From Alphaproteobacteria bacterium (lineage in GTDB: Bacteria > Pseudomonadota > Alphaproteobacteria > CAAHEQ01 > UBA3637): a DNA stretch of 64,000 nt. The stretch spans positions 852-64,851 of the forward strand of contig JAFTSJ010000009.1 in NCBI GenBank assembly GCA_017467335.1, given 5' to 3'. This document shows positions 9,397 through 60,921 of the stretch, piece by piece. The translations under genes were made by a program, and so were the position numbers. Every line of letters starts with the position of its first letter. Positions within the stretch are counted from its first letter, which is position 1. The notes beneath the pieces were generated by a model. The model did not search any database. It was not told the DNA's origin and saw only the letters and a list, made by a program, of their open reading frames with translations.

Positions 9397-11067
9397 ATGG
9401 CGGAAAAGAGTGTTTTTGATCAAATCAAGAAACAGAACGGTGAAAGTTTCGCAAAGGCAATTCGTACATACGATAATGGTATTTTTGATATTCCCAACAT
9501 TGTCAATATTGTAAAATATGCAGGTCGAGAAGCTGAACCGCTTATGCAGTACCTAATTTCATTGAAAAAAATCAAAATAGAAGATGTTGAAGAAGTTAAG
9601 GATCCTTTTGAATTGTTGTCCGATGCCGGTTATGATGCCTATTATGCGACTAACCTTAATGAACAAAATCGGATTTCAAAATATTTTGAACCGAATGAAA
9701 TGCTATGTACGTTTCGTGACCCAAGCAGATTCCAAAGATATCATATTATCAATGCTGTTAAAAAAAATGTTTCGGAGATTAAAAGAGAAGATTTTAGAGG
9801 TAAAGAACAAAGAGAAGATGCTTATGGAACAAGTGTTATATCTATTCAGGTTGCAATGCAAGGAGGATTTATTTCAATCAAAAATAGATACAATCACTCT
9901 ATCTCGAATCCAGATAACACATTTAACAGTAATCCGGACAACATTATCAAAGGACTATCAAATTCTTTAAAAAAATATCTTCAAGTTGATTTTTCTTCTT
10001 CTAATGTTTCTCTTCCTAACAATTTTGTCAATATCAACAATCAAATTGTTCGATATCACATAGAAGAAAATAATGTTTATTTCGCCGATAGTTATTATGC
10101 TAAAGACGGAAACATTTTCCCATTAAATAAAGATAATGAATTGATGTTGGATACATGTATATTAAACATTAAAAATCGTACACTGTATGATCCAAGTTGT
10201 TGCCTGGAACCAATATCAATAGACAATATTCAAGAAAAAAGTGGTAGTTTTGTGAGTGTGTTAGCTCATGAATTAAAAGGCAAGAGTCTACAAATTGTAA
10301 AAAGCAAAGATGGCGGACACAGTGTTTTTGCAAATGGAAAAACAATTATCAGTGTGAAAAATGGAGAAATTACAGCCTTAAATCTGCCAAATACAACAAT
10401 AGTGGGTGATGATTTCTTGCGAAACAATAAAGCCTTACAAATCCTTAATGCACAGAACTTAACAATAGTGGGGAATAATTTCTTGTATCGCAATGAAAAC
10501 TTACAAATCCTTAATACACCGAACTTAATAAAGGTGGGGGATAATTTTTTGTGGTTCAACAAAATCTTACACACCCTTAATGCACAGAACTTAACAATAG
10601 TGGGGAATGATTTCTTGCATCACAATGAAACCTTACAAATCCTTAATACGCCAAACTTAACAAAGGTGGGGGATGGTTTCTTGTGGTTCAACAAAATCTT
10701 ACACACCCTTAATGCGCAGAACTTAACAATAGTGGGGAATGATTTCTTGCGGTGCAACAAAATGTTTAAAACCCTTGATATGCATAAGTTAACAACGGTG
10801 GGTTGTTGTTTCTTACAGAGCAACAAAATCTTACAAATCCTTAATGCACAGAACTTAACAACGGTTGGAGATTATTTCTTGTGGTTCAACGAAAACTTAC
10901 AAATCCTTAATACACCGAAGTTAAAACGGATAGGCAAAATATCTTCCACACTCAAAGCTCTTTTGCAGAAAGCTCAAACTAGAAATCCATCTAACAATAA
11001 AAAATTGAATATACATAAAAAAAACACTGTAACAATATCAGTTACTCGTAGAAAAAACACTCGATAA
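9397..11067 (+). CDS. leucine-rich repeat protein with unknown N-terminal domain
   Basis: 556 aa with an AAAGGAG RBS. The C-terminal half has about 8.5 tandem 22-aa units LxxLNxxNLxxVGxxFLxxNxx. The N-terminal ~325 aa has no motif I recognise. Confidence 0.85.
   Translation: MAEKSVFDQIKKQNGESFAKAIRTYDNGIFDIPNIVNIVKYAGREAEPLMQYLISLKKIKIEDVEEVKDPFELLSDAGYDAYYATNLNEQNRISKYFEPNEMLCTFRDPSRFQRYHIINAVKKNVSEIKREDFRGKEQREDAYGTSVISIQVAMQGGFISIKNRYNHSISNPDNTFNSNPDNIIKGLSNSLKKYLQVDFSSSNVSLPNNFVNINNQIVRYHIEENNVYFADSYYAKDGNIFPLNKDNELMLDTCILNIKNRTLYDPSCCLEPISIDNIQEKSGSFVSVLAHELKGKSLQIVKSKDGGHSVFANGKTIISVKNGEITALNLPNTTIVGDDFLRNNKALQILNAQNLTIVGNNFLYRNENLQILNTPNLIKVGDNFLWFNKILHTLNAQNLTIVGNDFLHHNETLQILNTPNLTKVGDGFLWFNKILHTLNAQNLTIVGNDFLRCNKMFKTLDMHKLTTVGCCFLQSNKILQILNAQNLTTVGDYFLWFNENLQILNTPKLKRIGKISSTLKALLQKAQTRNPSNNKKLNIHKKNTVTISVTRRKNTR
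10369..10935 (+). repeat. in-frame tandem repeat, 66-bp unit (132-bp super-unit), encoding the LRRs
   Basis: Near-identical blocks recur, for example CTTAATGCACAGAACTTAACAATAGTGGGGAAT at ~10444, ~10576, ~10708 and, with two substitutions, ~10840. Confidence 0.85.
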
Positions 11068-25986: not shown

Positions 25987-26005
25987 TTTAATGGTGTATA
26001 TTATA

Positions 26006-26036
26006 AAAATGGGGGATTTTCTCCCCCATTTTTTAT
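26006..26036. terminator. bidirectional terminator hairpin
   Basis: AAAATGGGGGA-TTTT-CTCCCCCATTTT between convergent genes. Confidence 0.75.
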
Positions 26037-29000
26037 TTTTTTACACACCAAACGTTACCGTCATCATCTGTTTCAATCATTCGATTACAACCACTTGCTT
26101 CACACACAGCTTTTGCTTTGGTCGTATCAGTTATCATGATGTCAACATCTGTTGTGCAACTTTCTAATTGACCCGTACTATCGATAAAATAACCATCTTC
26201 GGCTTGTTTGGAACAATACCATATTGTTTTATCACTTGTCTGTTGACTGAATGCAACCCGATTGCACGCTTCGCATTGTTGACGATAAACCGCTTCCGTT
26301 CCGATTTCACGCACATTGTTGTCTTCACTGCATACAAGACATTTACCGTTTTGAGTTGATTGCCATCCTGAACCGGTTGTACAAGTCGGAACACAATATT
26401 GTAAACCGTTTGACCCGACTGTTAAAACTTGACGGTTACCACATTGTCCGCATGTTGCCGTATGCTCGGATTTCAGTCGATAGGTTGCATTGATATAGGA
26501 ACTTGGTTCACTATTAGGCGTGCATTTGACACAATCGGGTGTATTGTTCATAAATTCATTTGTTTGACATCCACCCAACGAACAAACACCACCACTGTAT
26601 GTGCGTTGCATTACTTTGGTATTACATAAAGCACATTGAACCTGCGATGTTGATACCGCCTTTTCCGTTGTGCATTCATGACAATTACCGGAGTCATCTC
26701 TAAATTTAAAGCCATCATAATCACCATCGAGGTAAGGTTGAATCGCATCTTTTAAATCTGAATCCATATTGGTTGGAAATGTTAAATTCTTGCTGTTACA
26801 AACACCACTCACACCAGGGTCAATCAATATACATCTTGATATGTTGTCCATAATTACACTTGTAATTCGATTATTGCACCGCCGACATTGTTCAGCCATA
26901 ATAAGAGAATTAGGCGCAATCCCATATTGAGAATCTCCAACACGATCACAGCGCATACAATCTCCCATTGTTCCCCGATACCTCACCATACCATCTGTAT
27001 CATTTGGGCAGGTTTTCAATACACATAAACCATCTCCATATGAAACTTTTTCCCGAGGATAGGCTGTATTTTGACAGACTTTCTCACAATGGTCCTCATC
27101 AACATACGTATTATAATAAGTTGAATATTTACCATTATCTTGTGAACATGGCATACACATTCCACCTGTATTTTGCCACTGATTCTCGGGACAAATTTTC
27201 AAACATTTTTGATTTCCGTTTGAATCCGTATAAATCCAACGAGTAGCAACTGCATCAGCATCTGTGCTATACTCGCCATTCTTTTTACGACAGTTTTTAA
27301 TACAACCCGAATCTTCTTCGGACACAATGTCTTTTCCATTAACGTCACAATTGTACGGTTCGCCGTCTTTTCCCCGAAATTGTCCCGTTTTTAATGCTTT
27401 TTCAATCATACAGTATCCGTTTCTAGCCGTTCGACCACACGCAACACACATTTTTTCTTCATAGGTGTCTATTTCATCCGTTCCACCTGTTGCAATAGAT
27501 CTACTTGATGTATCACTACATGCATAACATTGGCCTCCACTACGATATTGTCGTTCACAAGGCGTGCTGTCATCACCATCCGTACAAGCAGTGATAGAGG
27601 CATCTTCATCCGGTTGTTCACAAATGGGGCGACAAAGTGCATTCGAACCCAATTCACGTATCGGATTACCGTTGTCATCTTTGCAATTTTCAGTACACTG
27701 TGCGTTAATTTTTGACGAACTCCAACCAGAAGAACCTTTATACTCTCTATAACCCCCACCTTCCCAACCGGAAACACGATACTGGACATTATCTGTACAA
27801 GGATAACATGTCGGATTACCGCCAACTACTAAAAACGTACCTTTTTCACAATTCGGAAAATAATCACAAGAATTTTGCTGATAATAATTTTCCCACCAAA
27901 CAAGTCCACAGGCTTCACATAATTTACGAGCTTTATCTGTTCTTGGAATTCTATAACCTGTATCATTTGGCGAGCCATCTGGTTTACGGCACGGAATACA
28001 CCCATCATTTAACGATTCGTATGTAACACCCCGAATACACGCAACAGCACAATACGTTGTACCTGTAGATTCATCAACCGTAACCGTATGCGTATTAGCA
28101 CACGCATTACATTGTTCAATACCCGTTGTGTCATCTTCTATACTTAATGTGGTATCAGTAAATTTATCCGAACTGATTTCAATGGCGTTAATATCACTAC
28201 ATGGAATACATGCCCCGTTTTTGGCACGATATTCTTGGGGTTTTGACGAATCATAATTTTTACCTTCATTACAAACACGCATTTCCTGACAGGTATGATC
28301 TGACGTATTACAAACATAATTTTCGCCATGAGAAGAACAATCCTGATTAACCATACATTCAACGCATGCCCCTGTTTCACCGTTATCATAACAAAACGGT
28401 TTATTGGTTCCTGTACAGCTGTTTTTACACGTCATTTTATCGGTATCACAGGTAGCGTTTCCGCAAGGGCTACTACAATCCATATCTTCAACGCATGGGT
28501 CACCGCTTTGTCCGGTTCCTGCTTCATTATTTTCCGAATCTAAAAATGATGTAAAAACGATTAAATTATCTGTTTCATCTTCTCCACAAATAGAGGCATT
28601 GCCGGTATATTTGACTAAATCCCCCTCCCCTTGGGCAACTTGCACAAATTGAATCCCTTTAACAATACCGTTTAAGTTCATATTAACCACATTTTTACAC
28701 ACACGGGAAGAAACGCCTTCTACATAGGTTTTAAACGCAACGTCCGGATGAGATGTCATATAAATCGGGTATCCTGTACCTGTCATATCCGGAAATTCAT
28801 CAAAATCCGTGCCATCCTCACTGGGGTCTGGCAGGGGTTGTTCTTGATATTTATGCCAAACATCAGTCGCACGCAGATTCACTTCATACACAATATCATT
28901 GGCTCGATATTTATCCATCGCAAAGGTGTAACCGTAAATCCCACCGATTGAAAGAACGCCGATAATCGCCAAAACGCCCAATATTTCCACCATACTGCGT

Positions 29001-29059
29001 CCTGTTTCGGCTGTTTTTTGTTTAAAATATCCGTTTAAAAAAGCGTTTAAAATTTTCAT
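26033..29059 (-). CDS. cysteine-rich modular surface protein with prepilin-like N-terminal segment
   Basis: 1008 aa with a GAGGGG RBS. The N-terminus ...ETG/RSMVEILGVLAIIGVLSIGG has Gly at -1, Glu at +5 and a hydrophobic helix. By hand count there are about 78 Cys, 17 of them in CxxC motifs, arranged in about 10 divergent modules. Confidence 0.85.
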   Translation of the reverse strand: MKILNAFLNGYFKQKTAETGRSMVEILGVLAIIGVLSIGGIYGYTFAMDKYRANDIVYEVNLRATDVWHKYQEQPLPDPSEDGTDFDEFPDMTGTGYPIYMTSHPDVAFKTYVEGVSSRVCKNVVNMNLNGIVKGIQFVQVAQGEGDLVKYTGNASICGEDETDNLIVFTSFLDSENNEAGTGQSGDPCVEDMDCSSPCGNATCDTDKMTCKNSCTGTNKPFCYDNGETGACVECMVNQDCSSHGENYVCNTSDHTCQEMRVCNEGKNYDSSKPQEYRAKNGACIPCSDINAIEISSDKFTDTTLSIEDDTTGIEQCNACANTHTVTVDESTGTTYCAVACIRGVTYESLNDGCIPCRKPDGSPNDTGYRIPRTDKARKLCEACGLVWWENYYQQNSCDYFPNCEKGTFLVVGGNPTCYPCTDNVQYRVSGWEGGGYREYKGSSGWSSSKINAQCTENCKDDNGNPIRELGSNALCRPICEQPDEDASITACTDGDDSTPCERQYRSGGQCYACSDTSSRSIATGGTDEIDTYEEKMCVACGRTARNGYCMIEKALKTGQFRGKDGEPYNCDVNGKDIVSEEDSGCIKNCRKKNGEYSTDADAVATRWIYTDSNGNQKCLKICPENQWQNTGGMCMPCSQDNGKYSTYYNTYVDEDHCEKVCQNTAYPREKVSYGDGLCVLKTCPNDTDGMVRYRGTMGDCMRCDRVGDSQYGIAPNSLIMAEQCRRCNNRITSVIMDNISRCILIDPGVSGVCNSKNLTFPTNMDSDLKDAIQPYLDGDYDGFKFRDDSGNCHECTTEKAVSTSQVQCALCNTKVMQRTYSGGVCSLGGCQTNEFMNNTPDCVKCTPNSEPSSYINATYRLKSEHTATCGQCGNRQVLTVGSNGLQYCVPTCTTGSGWQSTQNGKCLVCSEDNNVREIGTEAVYRQQCEACNRVAFSQQTSDKTIWYCSKQAEDGYFIDSTGQLESCTTDVDIMITDTTKAKAVCEASGCNRMIETDDDGNVWCVKK

Positions 29060-29104
29060 AGACCCCTCACTGCAAAAGTTAACAAAATCAGACGGTTATT
29101 TTTC

Positions 29105-29136
29105 AAAAATGTGTCAAAAAAACGTCCCTTTTTTGA
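29105..29136. repeat. inverted repeat, left arm
   Basis: AAAAATGTGTCAAAAAAACGTCCCTTTTTTGA. Its reverse complement matches 29243-29275 except for one extra A. Confidence 0.9.
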
Positions 29137-29212
29137 ACGCTTTTTTTTGGCAGGGGTTACACTTTTTTAAAAACAAAAAAATCAATAAAAATCAAATAAT
29201 TATAAATTTTAG

Positions 29213-29241
29213 TTGACAAACGAAATGATATGAAATATTAT
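29213..29241 (+). promoter_or_regulatory. consensus sigma70 promoter between the inverted repeats, reading away from the Cys-rich gene
   Basis: TTGACA (29213-29218), 17-nt spacer, TATTAT (29236-29241). Confidence 0.6.
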
Positions 29242-29242
29242 G

Positions 29243-29275
29243 TCAAAAAAAGGGACGTTTTTTTGACACATTTTT
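29243..29275. repeat. inverted repeat, right arm
   Basis: TCAAAAAAAGGGACGTTTTTTTGACACATTTTT. This arm is itself an 11-bp/6-nt-loop palindrome (TGTCAAAAAAA GGGACG TTTTTTTGACA). Confidence 0.9.
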
Positions 29276-29434
29276 TCGAGTTAATACGTTGATTTAACTA
29301 TCTTTTTATTTTGGCCGTTTTAAAAAATTCCAAACAGTTTTTTGATAGGGGTTTTAAAAAATATTAACAACTGAATCATTTTGAAAAATGATTGTTTAAT
29401 AAATGTTTTTATCATACTCAACAAAAGAAAAGTA

Positions 29435-29896
29435 CTAATCTTTATGATAAGGATGACCATCTATAATCGTTTTAGCACGATATATCTGCTCAGCCAAAAC
29501 AACCCGTGCTAACATGTGAGGTAACGTCATTCGACCGAACGATAGTTTATAGTCAGCTTGCTGTTTTAAAAAATCAGCATGACCATTTGCACCACCAATT
29601 AAAAATGAAATTGCCGGTACACCCGAATCCATCCATCCTTGCAATAATGAAGCAAACTCCCGAGAAGATGGGGTTTTACCCGTTTCATCCAAAACAATTA
29701 TTTTTGATCCGGAAGGAACCGTATTTTGTAACAAATGCGATTCTGCTTCCTTTAAAGCAACACCTGTTAAGGCTTTTTTTTCTTCAACTTCCTTAACCAC
29801 AACAGACCATCTTGTTTTTTGTAAGTAAGATGAAATCAATATATCTTCCGGTGTTCCTTTTTTAAGACGTCCAATCGCTGAAATAACAATTTGCAT
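29435..29896 (-). CDS. rlmH: 23S rRNA (pseudouridine1915-N3)-methyltransferase
   Basis: MQIVISAIGRLKKG...LDETGK...FLIGGANGH...LSFGRMTLPHMLARVVLAEQIYRA is a typical SPOUT RlmH. ATG at 29896; the ORF is open to 30076. Confidence 0.9.
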   Translation of the reverse strand: MQIVISAIGRLKKGTPEDILISSYLQKTRWSVVVKEVEEKKALTGVALKEAESHLLQNTVPSGSKIIVLDETGKTPSSREFASLLQGWMDSGVPAISFLIGGANGHADFLKQQADYKLSFGRMTLPHMLARVVLAEQIYRAKTIIDGHPYHKD

Positions 29897-59421: not shown

Positions 59422-60921
59422 CTATATCCCTTCTTTTATACGCATAATGATATTGTCTTTATCTTTAACCAACTGCGAATCCCGTAACAACAAATTTTCA
59501 ATAGTTCGAACAGCATGAATAATTGTTGTATGATCTCGCCCGAATTGTGTTCCGATATCCGGTAAAGATAATGCCGTCAAGGTTTTAGATAAATACATCG
59601 CTAATTGACGAGGACGGGCAATTTTACGTTCACGCCGATTAGATTTAATATCAGATAATCTTAATCCGTAATAATCAGCCGTCACCTGCTGAATTTCAGC
59701 AACGGAAAATTGGCGTTCGTAAACTTGCAAAATATCCTTTAAGACAGAACGTGCCGTATCCATGTTAATTGGCGTTCCAATCAATTCAGCATGAGCAATC
59801 AACCGTTTAAAAGCACCTTCCAATTCACGAATACTGGCCGTAATATTTTTAGCTAAATACCGAATAACATCTTCCGGAATGTAAACACGGGTTTCTTCGG
59901 CTTTCTTTTGTAAAATACCCAATCTTAATTCGTATGTTGTCGGCTGAATTTGAACAACCAAACCCTGTGCAATACGGGTTTTAATTCTATCCTCAATCCC
60001 TTGTAAATCCATCGGATTGGTATCTGCTGACAAAATAATCTTCTTCCCTCGAGCAATTAACTGATTAAATGTATGGAAAAATTCTTCCTGAGAGGCCGGT
60101 TTACCAAAAATAAACTGAACATCATCAATCATCAGCACATCAACATCCCGAAATAATTTTCGAAACGAATCTGTATTTTTATGCTGTAAAGCTTTAATAA
60201 AGTGTTGAAAAAATTGCTCTGACGTCAAATATAAAACATTTTGTTCCGGATAAAGTTCCTTAATACGCCAAGCAATTGCGTGCATTAAGTGCGTTTTACC
60301 CAATCCAACGGACGCATGTAAATACAACGGATTAAAAACAACCGTGTTATCTTCGGCAACACGTCTGGCCGCCGCATAAGCAAATTCATTGGACGGACCG
60401 ACAACAAAAGAATCAAATGTATGACTTTTATCCAAAAAACACGGAATTGTTTCACCATCAACATCAATACGCATTTCAACTTTTCCGGCCGCATGCATTT
60501 TAATACTTTCAACAAAAGAAACAACATTGGGTGATGTTCCCTTGGCACTTAACGGTTGTATCGTCTGGGTTGAAAGAGCCGTATCCCCTTGTTGATTTAA
60601 CTGAAACGTTAATCCGCCAATCATCGGATTTTCTTTTTGCCATAAAGCCAATATCTGATCAGCATAATTTCGTTTAATCAATTCATGAATACACGGTGAC
60701 GGAACACACAAATTAACTTGATTATCCACCAATTTATCCGGCGTCACTCGCTTTAACCAACGCAAGGCTAATTTATCCCCCATTTGCGTTTCTAATGCTT
60801 GACAAACACTTTGCCATTCTTGTCGCAATGCGTTCTTTTCTGACTGAACGGCATTGGCAACCGTTTCAGGAGCATTGGTTTGTAAAAAAAGCAGTTGTTC
60901 TTGTTTCATGTCCGTTAACAT
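59422..60921 (-). CDS. dnaA: chromosomal replication initiator protein DnaA
   Basis: Walker A GLGKTHL, box VII/sensor motifs, and the C-terminal DNA-binding helix (FGRDHTTIIHAVR). Confidence 0.95.
   Translation of the reverse strand: MLTDMKQEQLLFLQTNAPETVANAVQSEKNALRQEWQSVCQALETQMGDKLALRWLKRVTPDKLVDNQVNLCVPSPCIHELIKRNYADQILALWQKENPMIGGLTFQLNQQGDTALSTQTIQPLSAKGTSPNVVSFVESIKMHAAGKVEMRIDVDGETIPCFLDKSHTFDSFVVGPSNEFAYAAARRVAEDNTVVFNPLYLHASVGLGKTHLMHAIAWRIKELYPEQNVLYLTSEQFFQHFIKALQHKNTDSFRKLFRDVDVLMIDDVQFIFGKPASQEEFFHTFNQLIARGKKIILSADTNPMDLQGIEDRIKTRIAQGLVVQIQPTTYELRLGILQKKAEETRVYIPEDVIRYLAKNITASIRELEGAFKRLIAHAELIGTPINMDTARSVLKDILQVYERQFSVAEIQQVTADYYGLRLSDIKSNRRERKIARPRQLAMYLSKTLTALSLPDIGTQFGRDHTTIIHAVRTIENLLLRDSQLVKDKDNIIMRIKEGI

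Follow-up and report, generated by a model that had tools for sequence, protein, structure and literature searches.

A probable invertible promoter ahead of a cysteine-rich, prepilin-like protein gene in an uncultured gut alphaproteobacterium

Invertible promoters are the main known route of surface variation in gut bacteria, and those studied in depth belong to Bacteroidota, Bacillota and Enterobacteria. We examined a 64,000-nucleotide stretch of DNA from an Alphaproteobacteria bacterium (GenBank assembly GCA_017467335.1, contig JAFTSJ010000009.1, positions 852 to 64,851 of the forward strand), referred to as "the window", in which a promoter framed by inverted repeats lies between rlmH and a gene for a 1008-residue cysteine-rich (Cys-rich) protein. 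This region, positions 29105 to 29275 of the window, is probably a promoter inverton, that is, a phase-variation switch operated by DNA inversion, and it stands in the OFF orientation in the window. Invertons across Proteobacteria are already on record from large computational surveys (PMC11602134), so the principle is not new. Our literature searches on invertons and Alphaproteobacteria returned general surveys only, with nothing for this lineage and gene family, and no paper joining invertible promoters, Alphaproteobacteria and pilin was found.

Several described systems are close to this one. The Escherichia coli element fimS is 314 bp long, with 9-bp repeats and adjacent recombinase genes, and serves a chaperone-usher fimbria. 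In fimS (FimB/FimE) and in elements of uropathogenic E. coli (UPEC), an invertible promoter directly upstream of a pilus gene is acted on by tyrosine recombinases (PMC6083910). The window resembles fimS in that the promoter is on the putatively invertible segment, directly upstream of a structural gene (here a pilin-like one), but no recombinase adjoins the locus and the window holds no FimB or FimE homologue. RecV of Clostridioides difficile is unlinked from its targets and acts at multiple sites. It is a tyrosine recombinase without which the 154-bp flagellar switch ahead of flgB does not invert; that switch acts after initiation, via Rho (PMC7446863). The RecV switches (flagellar, cwpV and cmrRST) have in common with the present locus a short segment, imperfect inverted repeats, surface or motility genes as targets and several copies per genome, and the window-type segments of 123-129 bp are close in size to the flagellar one. 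They differ in that the repeats described here are longer, each forms an 11-6-11 palindromic site, a consensus promoter lies on the segment, and the phylum is another. In Bacteroides, a single broadly conserved serine recombinase, Mpi, inverts 7-13 capsular polysaccharide (CPS) promoters of a gut commensal, and a recombinase unlinked from its targets is normal in such multi-locus systems (PMC10403206). As in the Mpi invertons, promoters before alternative surface loci share one repeat type; unlike them, the present targets are pilin-like proteins of Alphaproteobacteria rather than polysaccharide operons, and the switch, the 5' untranslated region (UTR) and the N-terminal codons have been duplicated together as one cassette. 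The 154-bp switch of RecV and the multi-promoter flipping of Mpi are precedents for the small size and for an unlinked enzyme.

The recombination sites invite a second set of comparisons. The dif site of XerC/D has the layout 11-6-11 and loxP the layout 13-8-13, and an asymmetric overlap sets site polarity. Like dif, the sites in the window have 11-bp half-sites around an asymmetric 6-bp overlap; their sequence is unrelated to dif, and the proposed role is gene switching, not chromosome resolution. The hix and gix sites of Hin and Gin are palindromic, with an asymmetric centre and A-tract-rich half-sites of the TTATCAAAAACC type; the present sites also have an asymmetric centre, TC within GTCC. 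Hin and Gin segments are 1-3 kb long, have the recombinase gene inside (Hin) or adjacent (Gin) and require a Fis-bound enhancer, whereas the 123-bp segment of the window contains no gene and phmmer found no Gin homologue in the window or the related loci. The shortness of the segment, together with the lack of an internal gene or enhancer, argues against a Hin/Gin-type invertasome. In Moraxella, Piv varies type IV pilin by inverting a ~2-kb coding segment, which swaps C-termini, and the DEDD-type enzyme is encoded nearby; the present system would instead invert a promoter, and Pfam scans found no such gene nearby.

Two recombinase core sites in inverted polarity are a substrate for inversion. 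The parts of the switch, in window coordinates, are:

29105..29136, no strand: gene-proximal (left) inverted-repeat arm, AAAAATGTGTCAAAAAAACGTCCCTTTTTTGA, read from the sequence
29243..29275, no strand: distal (right) inverted-repeat arm, TCAAAAAAAGGGACGTTTTTTTGACACATTTTT, read from the sequence
29112..29139, no strand: proximal core-type site, TGTCAAAAAAA-CGTCCC-TTTTTTGAACG, all three parts kept in five cassette copies
29123..29128, no strand: proximal crossover core CGTCCC, placed by the window/L084 and L078-subfamily comparisons described below
29241..29268, no strand: distal core-type site, TGTCAAAAAAA-GGGACG-TTTTTTTGACA, conserved in the cassette alignment
29129..29251, no strand: putative 123-bp invertible segment between the cores, in OFF orientation, delimited by comparison with L084
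29213..29241, plus strand: sigma-70-type promoter TTGACA-17-TATTAT, an 11/12 match, pointing away from the Cys-rich gene and toward the 3' end of rlmH

The two arms, 32 and 33 nt long, are reverse complements except for a run of T6 in one and T7 in the other. The original prediction, made by inspection of the window, had described this arm pair with its single odd homopolymer base, and was also correct in the 106 bp it counted between the arms and in the 375-bp gap from the gene start at 29059 to the rlmH stop at 29435. A 27-nt arm sequence occurs just twice in the window, both times at the switch, against 0 occurrences expected from 100 shuffles, and the 17-mer TGTCAAAAAAACGTCCC is likewise confined to the two arms. 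A chance origin of the inverted repeat, which flanks a short intergenic segment, is excluded. In the distal site, an asymmetric 6-bp core (29252-29257) is bordered by 11-bp half-sites that form a perfect inverted repeat. The proximal site is made up of an outer half TGTCAAAAAAA (29112-29122), a core of opposite polarity (29123-29128) and an inner half TTTTTTGAACG (29129-29139) that is degenerate; the earlier description of each arm as internally palindromic is thus exact for the right site and fails at the inner half of the left one. Tyrosine-recombinase core-type sites have inverted half-sites of ~11-13 bp and an asymmetric overlap of 6-8 bp that both partners share without difference, and the two sites of the window have this layout. 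Judged by this layout the enzyme may be a tyrosine recombinase, the 11-6-11 spacing being that of dif, but the sites would also be compatible with a serine recombinase acting at the central TC.

The plus-strand promoter, aimed away from the Cys-rich gene, is where the original prediction placed it. By its score alone it is mildly unusual, as 5.7% of shuffles of the AT-rich gap hold a site at least as good. Both hexamers are invariant across five cassette copies and the sequence of the 17-nt spacer varies; invariant sites and hexamers around a variable spacer are what a functioning promoter with functioning sites would be expected to show. The -10 hexamer ends 1 nt before the right arm, not 2 nt as first reported, and overlaps the full palindromic distal site (from 29241) by 1 nt. 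No comparable promoter had been seen on the minus strand, where a weak 9/12 promoter-like site, TTCATA-17-TAAAAT (29234 to 29206), does face the gene. Such sites are at chance level (3 found, 3.4 expected).

Both orientations of the segment are found in nature, and the breakpoints between cassette copies fall in the repeats. The promoter is directed away from the gene (OFF) in the window, in loci L001, L013, L045 and L082 and in the partial L083, and toward it (ON) in L084. L001 and the window have the same sequence throughout the compared switch region, and L001 and L084 share one European Nucleotide Archive (ENA) sample, ERZ28019339. The flanks of L084 match those of the window in direct orientation (distal 132/168, proximal 56/66), whereas the 123 bp between the cores match only as the reverse complement (114/125; direct 34/49). 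Accordingly, blastn places the central 171 bp of L084 (9785-9955) on the plus strand of window positions 29105-29275 and the flanking pieces on the minus strand. L084 reads TTGACA-17-TATTAT, GTCAAAAAAA-GGGACG-TTTTTTTGACACATTTTTGAAAAATAAC, ATG, which is the window flipped in silico; at the rlmH locus the junction sequence is ...CTCGAAAAAATGTGTCAAAAAAACGTCCCTTTTTTTGACATAATATT in OFF and would be ...CTCGAAAAAATGTGTCAAAAAAACGTCCCTTTTTTGAACGCTTTTTTTTGG in ON. When the OFF copies are flipped in silico, all five copies become collinear, and the half-sites, the cores and both hexamers are invariant. Between L084 and the window the inner half-sites and the length of the T-run (T6 or T7) move with the interior, indicating that the exchange point lies in the core or in the outer half-site.

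One further site in L084 was recorded at 9770-9797 on the minus strand, where the TTGACA of the distal arm's outer half-site and a TATATT 16 nt downstream form an 11/12 outward promoter-like sequence. Its -10 part is not kept in the window (TACGTT).

A diverged subfamily serves as an independent replicate. Its proteins P0004, P0005 and P0020 are 63-69% identical in alignment to the N-terminal 141 residues of the window protein, and its sites read CTCTACAAAAA-GGTCCG-TTTATGTAGAG and ...TCTAGA-CGGACG-TTTATGAAGAA. L078 is ON, with TTGATT-16-TATAAT facing the gene from a 145-bp interior, and L079, L080, L170 and L171 are OFF, with the L078 interior in reverse complement. The interiors of L078 and L079 match at 139/146 positions as reverse complements; against L170 the L078 interior matches at 128/146 as the reverse complement, while the distal flank (230/243) and the proximal flank (33/35) match directly. 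In this subfamily the junctions leave only the 6 bp GTCCGT as the place of exchange. Homology-driven inversion would need a longer inverted repeat than the one shared by these sites (GTCCGT and a few more bases), a point in favour of a site-specific enzyme. The sites of a third type, L085/L086, are TGCAATAAAA-GGGACG-TATAATTGCA and GGGAAAAAAA-GGTCCC-TTTTATTACAC. Across the three types the half-sites differ and the core is constant as [CG]GTCC[CG]; the first position is not the same in the two partner cores of the L078 and L085 types, where the identical overlap is GTCC[CG]T. The flipped state that the original prediction foresaw is found in L084, and the diverged subfamily shows the same flip in L078; in these ON copies the promoter reads into the gene in that orientation only, at the level of the sequence.

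Could the interiors of L084 and L078 have been mis-oriented by the assembler? Such an error would be favoured by the several copies of the cassette and by the many contigs whose ends lie in it or close by. However, the 30 nt of identity in the arms is far below k=141 (a value inferred from "k141_" in the names of contigs L001 and L084, not a documented parameter), and junction k-mers would span flank, arm and interior. Both states also occur in independent assemblies (L079, L080, L170 and L171 OFF; L078 ON, also at NCBI), and we regard an assembly artefact as highly improbable.

To place the switch among its relatives, 185,579 species genomes (596 Gb) were searched for the 17-mer TGTCAAAAAAACGTCCC. 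Single scattered matches in unrelated taxa were about as numerous as a 17-mer would produce by chance in that much sequence, and the sole related genome with matches was the Alphaproteobacteria metagenome-assembled genome (MAG) RGIG6380 from sheep rectum, in which L013 and L045 carry the same unit ahead of two different paralogues of the gene family. Additional copies (L082, L083 and L084) were obtained by look-ups with family proteins, and a 24-mer of the window-type arm gave 0 matches in the metagenomes of the Joint Genome Institute (JGI). The first 13 positions of L082, GCTCTTCCGATCT, are an Illumina adapter remnant in the public assembly. The copies share one order: a ~70-nt distal module, the distal site, the 123-bp interior, the proximal site, the 5' UTR and the conserved N-terminal codons. 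The parts outside the sites are, in the window:

29276..29346, no strand: conserved distal module of the cassette, from the cassette alignment (L084 9714-9814 matches window 29346-29246 at 94%)
29060..29111, minus strand: 5' leader of the Cys-rich gene, with the Shine-Dalgarno sequence GAGGGG (29063-29068, minus strand), conserved among cassette copies
26033..29059, minus strand: controlled gene for the 1008-residue Cys-rich protein with a prepilin-like N-terminus, from its open reading frame (ORF) and the family alignment

The arm unit is always linked to this gene family, and is therefore a promoter cassette of one family and not a generic intergenic repeat or a miniature inverted-repeat transposable element (MITE). 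The original prediction had raised a MITE or repetitive extragenic palindromic (REP) element as an alternative and had proposed counting copies of the arm; the 17-mer scan of species genomes returned no generic repeat pattern. A mobile element of this kind, with the outward promoter incidental, would suit the dimensions of the region (171 bp with 32-bp terminal inverted repeats), its several copies and the assemblies that break around it. It is scarcely credible because the region always sits within a larger collinear unit of distal module, 5' UTR and N-terminal codons of one family, because no target-site duplication is present at its ends, and because the inversion breakpoints are at cores inside the arms and not at the ends of the element. 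Many unrelated intergenic copies with target-site duplications are not what was found: in 596 Gb, the scattered unrelated matches apart, the arm is confined to sites upstream of family genes in one MAG.

The switch does not extend to the whole family. A family-wide scan of JGI metagenomes gave 78 loci, mostly lacking GTCC-type site pairs, and a survey of inverted repeats with arms of at least 14 nt found them upstream of 13/87 family genes, compared with 6/117 random 450-nt windows. Only L098, L148 and L085/L086 in that survey looked homologous to the present switches, and L098 and L148, which lie farther out in the family, carry comparable repeat pairs at a spacing of 115-135 bp. Since most family loci have no site pair, the switch is a trait of a subclade. 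In L098 (1150-1420) two copies of ACAAAAACGATCGTTTTTGT lie 115 bp apart upstream of the gene; their core CGATCG is itself palindromic and would not set site polarity.

On the outward side, the neighbours of the cassette differ from copy to copy (rlmH, a tRNA-like region, a helix-turn-helix (HTH) gene), and the distal module is common to copies whose neighbouring genes differ. It may act as an insulator or terminator of outward transcripts in the OFF state. In the module (window 29276-29346; L084 9714-9790; L013; L082) we observed a CCGTTT...AAACGG-type hairpin, followed outward by T6 in several copies; one variant position retains pairing only as G-U, on the gene-direction strand. The hairpin was not called by a terminator scan of the window and L084, and its fold is weak in the window.

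These features also bear on a different account of the arms, in which they are a pair of palindromic operators through which a dimeric transcription factor loops 140 bp around a fixed outward promoter for a small RNA or an rlmH antisense transcript. Each arm is palindromic with TTGACA/TGTCAA motifs, the promoter is outward in 5/6 copies and ~70 nt past the distal arm are conserved, all of which such operators would accommodate. They would leave the precise core flips in L084 and L078 unexplained, and the outward neighbours vary by copy. The original prediction had mentioned a small RNA as an alternative; the outward transcript matched no Rfam family (only sub-threshold plant miRNA-hairpin matches, at 30 bits against a gathering score of 140) and its fold is not significant (z = +0.63). 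We consider the operator pair very unlikely.

The rlmH gene occupies 29435-29896 on the minus strand (SPOUT_MTase, E = 4e-41), and the genes of the window identified with Pfam and NCBIfam are housekeeping genes, among them ThrRS, EF-P, AcrB, RadA, CvpA, MlaDEF, UvrB, LpxC and DnaA. The GC skew flips from positive to negative at ~26 kb, where gene orientations converge and the Cys-rich gene lies; the shift, 33 kb from dnaA (59422-60921, minus strand), may be a strand bias of gene orientation or a replication landmark.

Several observations weigh against an active switch at this locus. The two orientations are seen between paralogous or orthologous copies, and there is no same-locus pair at rlmH: when the flipped state was sought there in public contigs, L001 was the sole other contig to cross the switch, in the same orientation as the window. 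Eight of nine contigs carrying rlmH stop between rlmH and the switch or within the distal arm, and those that enter from the side of the neighbouring 368-residue protein gene all stop in or before the Cys-rich gene. The multi-copy cassette is the best explanation of these breaks, which we have not counted as evidence of inversion and which are uninformative on heterogeneity. Five of the six window-type copies are OFF, and the sole ON copy, L084, precedes an 85-codon deletion remnant. The segment lengths of 123-129 bp are at the short end for inversion. OFF may also not mean silent, first because rlmH is co-directional with the Cys-rich gene, which makes read-through possible, and second because the chance-level 9/12 site faces the gene in the present orientation.

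No recombinase gene has been found near the switch. The original prediction had reported none in the window, and Pfam and NCBIfam searches of credible ORFs of at least 110 residues across the 64 kb found no class of recombinase. Nor was a cognate site-specific recombinase present in the fetched flanks of switch-bearing loci (by gene tables and by phmmer with FimB, FimE and Gin), which covered 10 kb on each side of L084, L170 and L171, 10 kb upstream of L085, ~3 kb for L078/L079 and the entire short contigs of the remaining loci. When every ORF of the window and of the family loci was searched with FimB, FimE and Gin, phmmer matched only FimB/E-like ORFs at L120 and L123. These are distant family loci that have no switch, and the ORFs were rejected as the cognate enzymes.

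These facts can also be read as the signature of a fossil switch, one that was invertible in an ancestor or flipped rarely, so that orientation differences are now fixed and the locus no longer flips. Such a history would fit orientation differences that occur only between loci or genomes and never within one locus, the degenerate inner half of the proximal site and the negative recombinase search just described. It is, however, at odds with the constancy of sites, cores, hexamers and even the degenerate half-site across copies that are ~5-12% different elsewhere, and with two diverged subfamilies that each keep both states. Three good half-sites and one weak one are common in active recombinase sites, which also weighs against a fossil. 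We judge the fossil switch unlikely, and prefer a promoter inverton in which an enzyme would drive inversion, and we infer that it is ongoing and reversible at this locus.

In the mechanism we propose, a site-specific recombinase encoded elsewhere in the genome would bind both 28-bp core-type sites through their 11-bp A-tract half-sites, and strand exchange within the cores at 29123-29128 and 29252-29257 would flip the 123-bp promoter segment. In the OFF state of the window the promoter abuts the distal site and would fire outward, in the antisense direction to the rlmH end, and its transcripts would possibly be stopped by the conserved distal module. Once the segment is ON, the -10 element would lie directly against the proximal site, and the gene would be transcribed with a leader of ~75 nt running from within the proximal site to the Shine-Dalgarno GAGGGG. 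The original prediction of a short leader after the flip stands, although its ~70 nt is here computed as ~75 nt. The promoter on the segment is presumably the main promoter of the gene. The cassette stands ahead of several paralogous genes, and a single recombinase would thereby set the pattern of ON and OFF states over a family of surface proteins.

The controlled protein has no Pfam or NCBIfam match, exact-protein look-ups of its full 1008 residues and of P0009 gave no match, and searches of the PDB by sequence and of folds with Foldseek gave no significant match. With the first 141 residues as query, 1334 relatives were found, which carry no source name or are called only "hypothetical protein"; the source organism, where given, is an uncultured Alphaproteobacteria bacterium, and one relative was called PilE by JGI. 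The Cys-rich gene family is large in uncultured gut Alphaproteobacteria. The N-terminus, MKILNAFLNGYFKQKTAETG|RSMVEILGVLAIIGVLSIGG, consists of a leader, then G|RSMVE, then a hydrophobic helix, and the motif G|RSMVE[IM]LGVLA[IV]IGVLS is invariant or nearly so in 30 family members. In a structure model, residues 22-70 form a 49-residue N-terminal helix that is followed by strands. Type IV pilin-like proteins are marked by a class III signal peptide, with a short leader, Gly at -1, Glu at +5 and about 20 hydrophobic residues, and by a long N-terminal helix. The N_methyl family PF07963 matches family members below threshold (at most 16.8 bits; cut-off 21.2). On these features we tentatively assign the Cys-rich protein as type IV pilin-like.

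In some relatives (L078:3001-3213, L079 and L170; proteins P0003-P0005, P0020 and P0021) an extension of ~80 residues, MNIKQI..NSF..LKNNQK.., precedes G|RSMVE. Such a length is unusual for a prepilin leader: either the start was mis-called or the long leader is genuine. In distant JGI loci (L151, L116, L118, L111, L138 and others), genes with the GRSMVEMLG motif are found in tandem, with up to five motif copies in 2.3 kb in L151; these tandem-array loci have no GTCC-type sites.

The gene body also varies. At window positions 25987-26200 (loci L165-L169), the gene for the adjacent 368-residue protein is present without change in ten contigs of other samples; of the five shown, four stop within ~135 nt past that gene, at or slightly within the 3' end of the Cys-rich gene, and one stops inside the gene. 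The body of the Cys-rich gene seems to be strain-variable or repeated among paralogues. In the L084 remnant (10001-10440), the N-terminal ~75 codons (window 28836-29059) are fused to a piece 94% identical to window 26466-26628, which corresponds to codons ~811-865 of the window gene, and a strong terminator is next. The remnant suggests recombination or deletion among family members. Together, the remnant and the contig breaks at the gene's 3' end suggest gene-body recombination.

A broader reading, which we hold only tentatively and rate at somewhat under even chances, is that the cassette belongs to a global switch like that of Mpi, in a phylum that has no described case. A portable cassette would stand before many variable Cys-rich pilin-like genes, one unlinked and perhaps unusual recombinase recognising A-tract half-sites and a GTCC core would choose the members that are expressed, and gene-body recombination would add antigenic variation.

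The sites are well defined, and the crossover could be mapped to 6 bp by comparison alone. They provide a target sequence for finding the recombinase and a marker for read-based profiling of ON and OFF states in metagenomes, and the repeated cassette helps to account for assembly fragmentation at these loci. If the promoter inverton is real, uncultured low-GC gut Alphaproteobacteria would gain a clear case that is defined by its sequence, and the implication would be that a large, otherwise unannotated family of prepilin-like Cys-rich proteins is under the control of such a switch.

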